From assembly GCF_013122565.1 (NCBI RefSeq), contig NZ_CP053258.1: 64,000 bases of DNA; one strand, written 5' to 3'. A model generated the notes under the pieces. That model had not been told where the DNA came from and did no database searches. It was given only the letters and a program-made list of their open reading frames with translations. Positions 15,862-16,248 of this stretch are shown in pieces (position 1 is the stretch's first letter; the number at the start of each line of letters is the position of its first letter). Position numbers and translations under genes: made by a program. The stretch comes from Escherichia coli. GTDB lineage: Bacteria > Pseudomonadota > Gammaproteobacteria > Enterobacterales > Enterobacteriaceae.

Positions 15862-16248
15862 TTAACGATACTTCTTGTGATATGAATTGCGGGTCGTTTT
15901 CAGTTGCTCTGCAGCAGCCTGCGCTTCTTTTACTTTACCTTCATTTGCCAGCTTCAGCGCGTCGTCAATCTGACCGACCAGAATGTCGAAACCGTGGCGG
16001 AAATCTTTCATTTCCGGGCTGTCCGGTGATTTATCTTCGAGCTTCGGCGGCGTTGCTTTTTGCGCATCCAGCGCTGCGGCGCGCATCTTCGTTAACGCGT
16101 CTTTGACTTGCGCCGCGTTATCGGCTTTTTCGACCACTTTTAAATTGTCGTTGAGGGTTTCCATATTGTCTTCAAGATCAGCGGCAAACGACGCCGAACT
16201 GAATACCAACGAGGAGACTGCAAGAATAGCTAACAGGCTTTTACGCAT
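15862..16248 (-). CDS. cybC: Soluble cytochrome b562, full length with signal peptide
   Basis: 128 aa; signal peptide [22 protein letters not shown] then mature [15 protein letters not shown]... Confidence 0.9.

Follow-up and report, generated by a model that had tools for sequence, protein, structure and literature searches.

The gene at positions 15862..16248 (reverse strand) of the window, by which we mean the whole 64,000-nucleotide stretch of DNA analysed here, is very probably (about 95%) the intact chromosomal cybC of an E. coli-group bacterium, encoding the precursor of soluble cytochrome b562. We regard it as almost certainly real, intact and functional. An intact cybC as such is already known and has been in the literature for three decades, and nothing in our analysis suggests a new function for the CybC protein.

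Identity of the cybC product

The features of the gene and of its immediate 5' region, to which the following analyses refer, are these:

15862..16248, reverse strand: cybC coding sequence from the open reading frame listing, ATG start, 128-aa precursor of soluble cytochrome b562
15862-15864, reverse strand: cybC stop codon, counted within the coding sequence
16183..16248, reverse strand: part coding for the predicted signal peptide, residues 1-22, as the mature chains of the PDB align from residue 23 on
15865..16182, reverse strand: predicted mature cytochrome b562, 106 aa, with Met at mature position 7 and His at 102
16230..16255, reverse strand: 26 bp deleted in K-12 and intact in the window, from an alignment of the window, O8:H28, K-12 HMS174 and MG1655
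16257..16261, reverse strand: Shine-Dalgarno-like AAGGA, 8 nt 5' of the cybC ATG, read from the sequence

The assignment to the cytochrome b562 family rests on several comparisons. The product matched the Pfam family PF07361 (Cytochrom_B562) with E=3.3e-34 and 118 bits, compared with a cut-off (gathering score) of 30, and its residues 24-128 covered profile positions 1-102 of 102, a match that is far beyond chance. The label under the cybC match was 'cybC: cytochrome b562' in 5,425 of 5,426 complete E. coli genomes. Comparison with the PDB retrieved two deposited precursor sequences, of 128 and 131 aa, that align end to end with the product. The sequence-only reading had placed an intact 128-aa cybC frame with a signal peptide at this position, and it was borne out by the exact coordinates, the full-length PF07361 match and the 22-residue presequence.

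The 106-aa mature cytochrome b562 chains in the PDB (1apc, 1qpu, 256b) align to residues 23-128 of the product, because of which we read residues 1-22 as the presequence. These residues have a Sec-type anatomy, with an MRK n-region carrying two positive charges, a hydrophobic core (residues 4-16, mean Kyte-Doolittle 2.47) and S-F-A before the mature Ala, and the mature protein begins ADLEDN. The columns of Met7 and His102 (mature numbering) were invariant across the aligned CybC alleles. We take these two residues to be the axial haem ligands of cytochrome b562, as in the 256B structure.

A path from precursor to electron carrier can be proposed on this basis. The N-terminal 22 residues would direct the CybC precursor to Sec-dependent export, and cleavage, predicted from the mature PDB sequences to fall between Ala22 and Ala23, would leave the 106-residue mature protein. 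Near-identity to the solved structures 256b and 1qpu (E=3.8e-63) predicts that mature CybC folds as a four-helix bundle with one non-covalent protohaem IX; folding would take place in the periplasm and the haem would be held through Met7 and His102. In its haem-loaded form CybC would then serve in the periplasm as a soluble carrier of single electrons. Identity with E. coli proteins that have been characterised is the basis on which we predict expression, export, cleavage and haem binding in the source strain. A published account lists cybC as a pseudogene in MG1655 and gives the function of the protein as unknown (PMC3349551).

Alleles of cybC and the K-12 deletion

We compared the window allele with those of three reference lineages. 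The O157:H7 protein (WP_001232245.1) is identical to that of the window over all 128 aa (100%), and the two genes are separated by one synonymous nucleotide difference, in codon 2 (99.7% identity). O157:H7 also has the same pmbA-cybC spacer with its palindromic repeat; unlike the window, it has a short 44-bp cybC-nrdG spacer with no relBE-type insertion. The B-lineage cytochrome b562 (WP_001232240.1, NEBExpress) resembles that of the window in length, signal peptide, haem ligands and genomic position, but is 98% identical. This comparison with E. coli B, which the sequence-only reading had proposed, gave differences at 3 of 128 residues, V39I, S122A and K125Q (mature V17I, S100A and K103Q), and at these sites the window CybC falls into the K-12/O157 allele class. 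K-12 b4236 shares the flanking pmbA and the upstream repeat with the window; over the common 366 nt there are three differences, all synonymous, and the 121 retained residues are identical, whereas 26 bp and the relBE-type insertion are missing from K-12. Relative to the K-12 allele class, the window allele is the undamaged form, separated from it by three synonymous changes and the 26-bp deletion. Comparing six intact cybC alleles in pairs gave pN/pS values between 0 and 0.21, with no more than 15 synonymous and 3 nonsynonymous differences, which fits purifying selection acting on a working gene.

The MG1655 record (NC_000913.3) annotates cybC/b4236 (4459488..4459855) as a pseudogene. In our alignment the lesion appeared as a single clean gap of 26 bp, shared by MG1655 and HMS174, which removes 7 nt of the leader (GTGAGCA), the first six codons, ATG included, and the first base of codon 7. 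With the ATG, the signal peptide loses its Arg-Lys n-region; the AAGGA motif survives. Record and alignment both agree with the earlier description of cybC in MG1655 as a truncated pseudogene; that reading of K-12 stands, because K-12 cybC is not identical to the window gene over its full length, lacking these 26 bp. The window gene is itself not a pseudogene allele of this type, because the full 26 bp are present at 16230..16255.

The contrast with K-12 would be overstated if the K-12 allele still worked from an ATT codon as a 121-aa product. PGAP indeed calls the remnant a 121-aa 'cytochrome b562' coding sequence with an ATT start (WP_023649327.1) in HMS174 and in all K-12-type genomes listed; the remnant is otherwise in frame and 100% identical in protein, and the AAGGA motif outlasts the deletion. 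The term 'pseudogene' thus holds for the curated MG1655 view and is not universal across K-12 genomes. Several observations nonetheless make a working K-12 allele very unlikely. The curated MG1655 record calls the gene a pseudogene, and the start proposed by PGAP is non-canonical, follows the retained AAGGA at a distance of only 3 nt and opens a frame from which the Arg-Lys n-region is gone. PMC13041623 credits Trower 1993 with the finding that disruption of cybC prevents expression in K strains, and a 2022 bioRxiv preprint treated cybC of K-12 as a pseudogene, using it as a neutral landing site. In addition, cybC is among the genes expressed more highly in the B strain REL606 than in MG1655 (PMC3446290). 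We therefore retain the reading of K-12 cybC as a disrupted gene. For users of genome annotation the practical point is that records of one and the same K-12 allele conflict, with a curated pseudogene in MG1655 and an automatically called 121-aa ATT-start coding sequence in HMS174.

The frequency of each allele was determined in 5,426 complete E. coli genomes by megablast, using 50-bp queries centred on the junction, short enough on either side that the other allele cannot supply the 28-nt word that megablast needs. Of these genomes, 355 had the deletion junction of K-12, and all 60 listed of the 355 were recognisable K-12 laboratory strains or O16:H48 isolates. The intact junction of the window type was found in 4,612 genomes and the intact O157-type junction, which carries a synonymous CGT-to-CGA change in codon 2, in 454, so that the three junction types together accounted for 5,421 of the 5,426. 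Intact cybC is the rule in E. coli (at least 93%) and the K-12 state is the exception; the deletion is apparently confined to one laboratory pedigree. Since an intact cybC is the species norm, it is no special trait of the window's lineage. The suggestion in the sequence-only reading that the window derives from a lineage retaining a functional copy is accordingly supported as far as the intact gene is concerned, but the feature does not distinguish that lineage, at least 5,066 of the 5,426 genomes having an intact 5' junction.

The biological weight of the finding is small, given that an intact cybC is normal in E. coli and that the 26-bp lesion of K-12 was described in 1993. On the practical side, the window does not come from a K-12 strain. 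Native cytochrome b562 from non-K-12 hosts can also contaminate preparations of anti-BRIL reagents (PMC13041623), which makes it useful to know the strains in which cybC is intact.

Upstream region, gene neighbourhood and expression

Four further features flank the gene:

16269..16405, reverse strand: palindromic dispersed repeat of ~137 bp in the pmbA-cybC spacer (cybC upstream/leader region)
15829..15854, reverse strand: terminator-like hairpin, 8 nt past the cybC stop codon, 11-bp stem and weak T tail, by consensus match only
15429..15671, reverse strand: relB-type antitoxin (Pfam RelB, 58.6 bits)
15149..15439, reverse strand: relE-type toxin (Pfam ParE_toxin, 53.9 bits)

The columns AATAAAAAAGGAA, which include the AAGGA motif, were invariant in all seven aligned cybC upstream regions, and the 180 bp 5' of the gene, Shine-Dalgarno-like motif included, are near-identical in the window and in B and O157 strains. 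The spacer repeat is shared with B, O157 and K-12 but lacking in ATCC 8739, where pmbA and cybC are only 54 bp apart. Copies number 1-5 per genome, and the others, one of them in the rhlB-gppA spacer, are ~71-73% identical. The repeat folds, at -63.4 kcal/mol (z = -9.1), into a long hairpin with imperfect pairing. Judged by the ERIC consensus, it presumably belongs with elements resembling ERIC/IRU. A scan of 14500-18000 against Rfam (E<=1) gave no match at or near cybC. Within the gap between nrdD and nrdG, at 14513-14664, the same database gave three overlapping sub-threshold matches to naRNA4 (34-42 bits, gathering score 59.5), which are probably REP/BIME elements.

The local gene order is nrdD, nrdG (14684..15148, forward strand), the toxin-antitoxin pair, cybC (reverse strand), pmbA/tldE (16431..17783, reverse strand), yjgA, mpl and fbp. 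The location of cybC between pmbA/tldE and nrdG is the same in MG1655, HMS174, O8:H28, O157 and EC42405, and the wider window is an ordinary E. coli-type chromosome from pyrBI to beyond tamAB. The type II toxin-antitoxin pair, of the relB/relE type, is an insertion: 708 bp of the window (15145..15852) take the place of the 39 bp between nrdG and cybC in K-12, and the stop codons of the toxin and of nrdG lie directly against each other. Coverage of the 1.4-kb toxin-antitoxin region reached 80% or more in just 441 complete E. coli genomes out of 5,426; in EC42405 the antitoxin is there without the toxin.

These flanking elements bear on whether the reading frame might be intact and cybC nevertheless silent or decaying in this genome, through loss of its promoter or through neighbouring insertions. 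A strict consensus scan of 15100-16500 found no sigma-70 promoter for cybC, the pmbA-cybC spacer holds the 137-bp palindrome, and the 708-bp toxin-antitoxin insertion has taken the place of the usual nrdG-cybC spacer and its hairpin. The repeat and a near-identical spacer are, however, also found in B and O157 strains, and in B strains cybC is expressed: B-lineage expression strains yield native cytochrome b562 as a co-purifying protein (PMC13041623). Moreover, a substitute terminator-like hairpin follows the cybC stop codon, and the gene has accumulated no nonsynonymous change relative to O157:H7 and only three relative to B, with pN/pS of at most 0.21. A silent or decaying cybC is thus highly improbable, and we favour a gene that is functional as well as intact. 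We give no credence to the view that the frame is a chance one, or a misassigned homologue from another family of four-helix haem proteins, for which the shortness of the frame is the sole support, compared with the full-length Pfam match at 118 bits, the 100% protein identity to annotated E. coli CybC and the conserved position of the gene relative to pmbA and nrdG.

Accepting a functional cybC, the upstream palindrome and the downstream toxin-antitoxin insertion could alter its expression relative to B or K-12. That its regulation or transcript stability actually differs here from that in B and O157, on account of the ERIC-like leader palindrome and the relBE-type module downstream, seems unlikely to us.

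Affinity of the wider window

The window belongs to an E. coli-group chromosome and is mosaic in its affinities. Across 8000-24000 no complete E. coli genome was more than 97.8% identical, and individual segments within this interval were 99.3-99.7% identical to K-12 or O157. K-12, which the window certainly is not, was 97-99.4% identical by segment. Among species representatives, SCPM-O-B-8794 was the only match to share an exact 50-mer of the pmbA-cybC spacer, and was otherwise 93-96% identical. EC42405 was 100% identical in the spacer repeat and only about 95-97.6% identical across 40 kb. At 36000-56000, the best complete E. coli match was 91-92% identical, and coverage of at least 80% was found in 165 of the 5,426 genomes. 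This part of the window, near cycA and cpdB, encodes a FAD-dependent oxidoreductase and an acyl-CoA:acetate/3-ketoacid CoA transferase, and looks like a divergent accessory segment.
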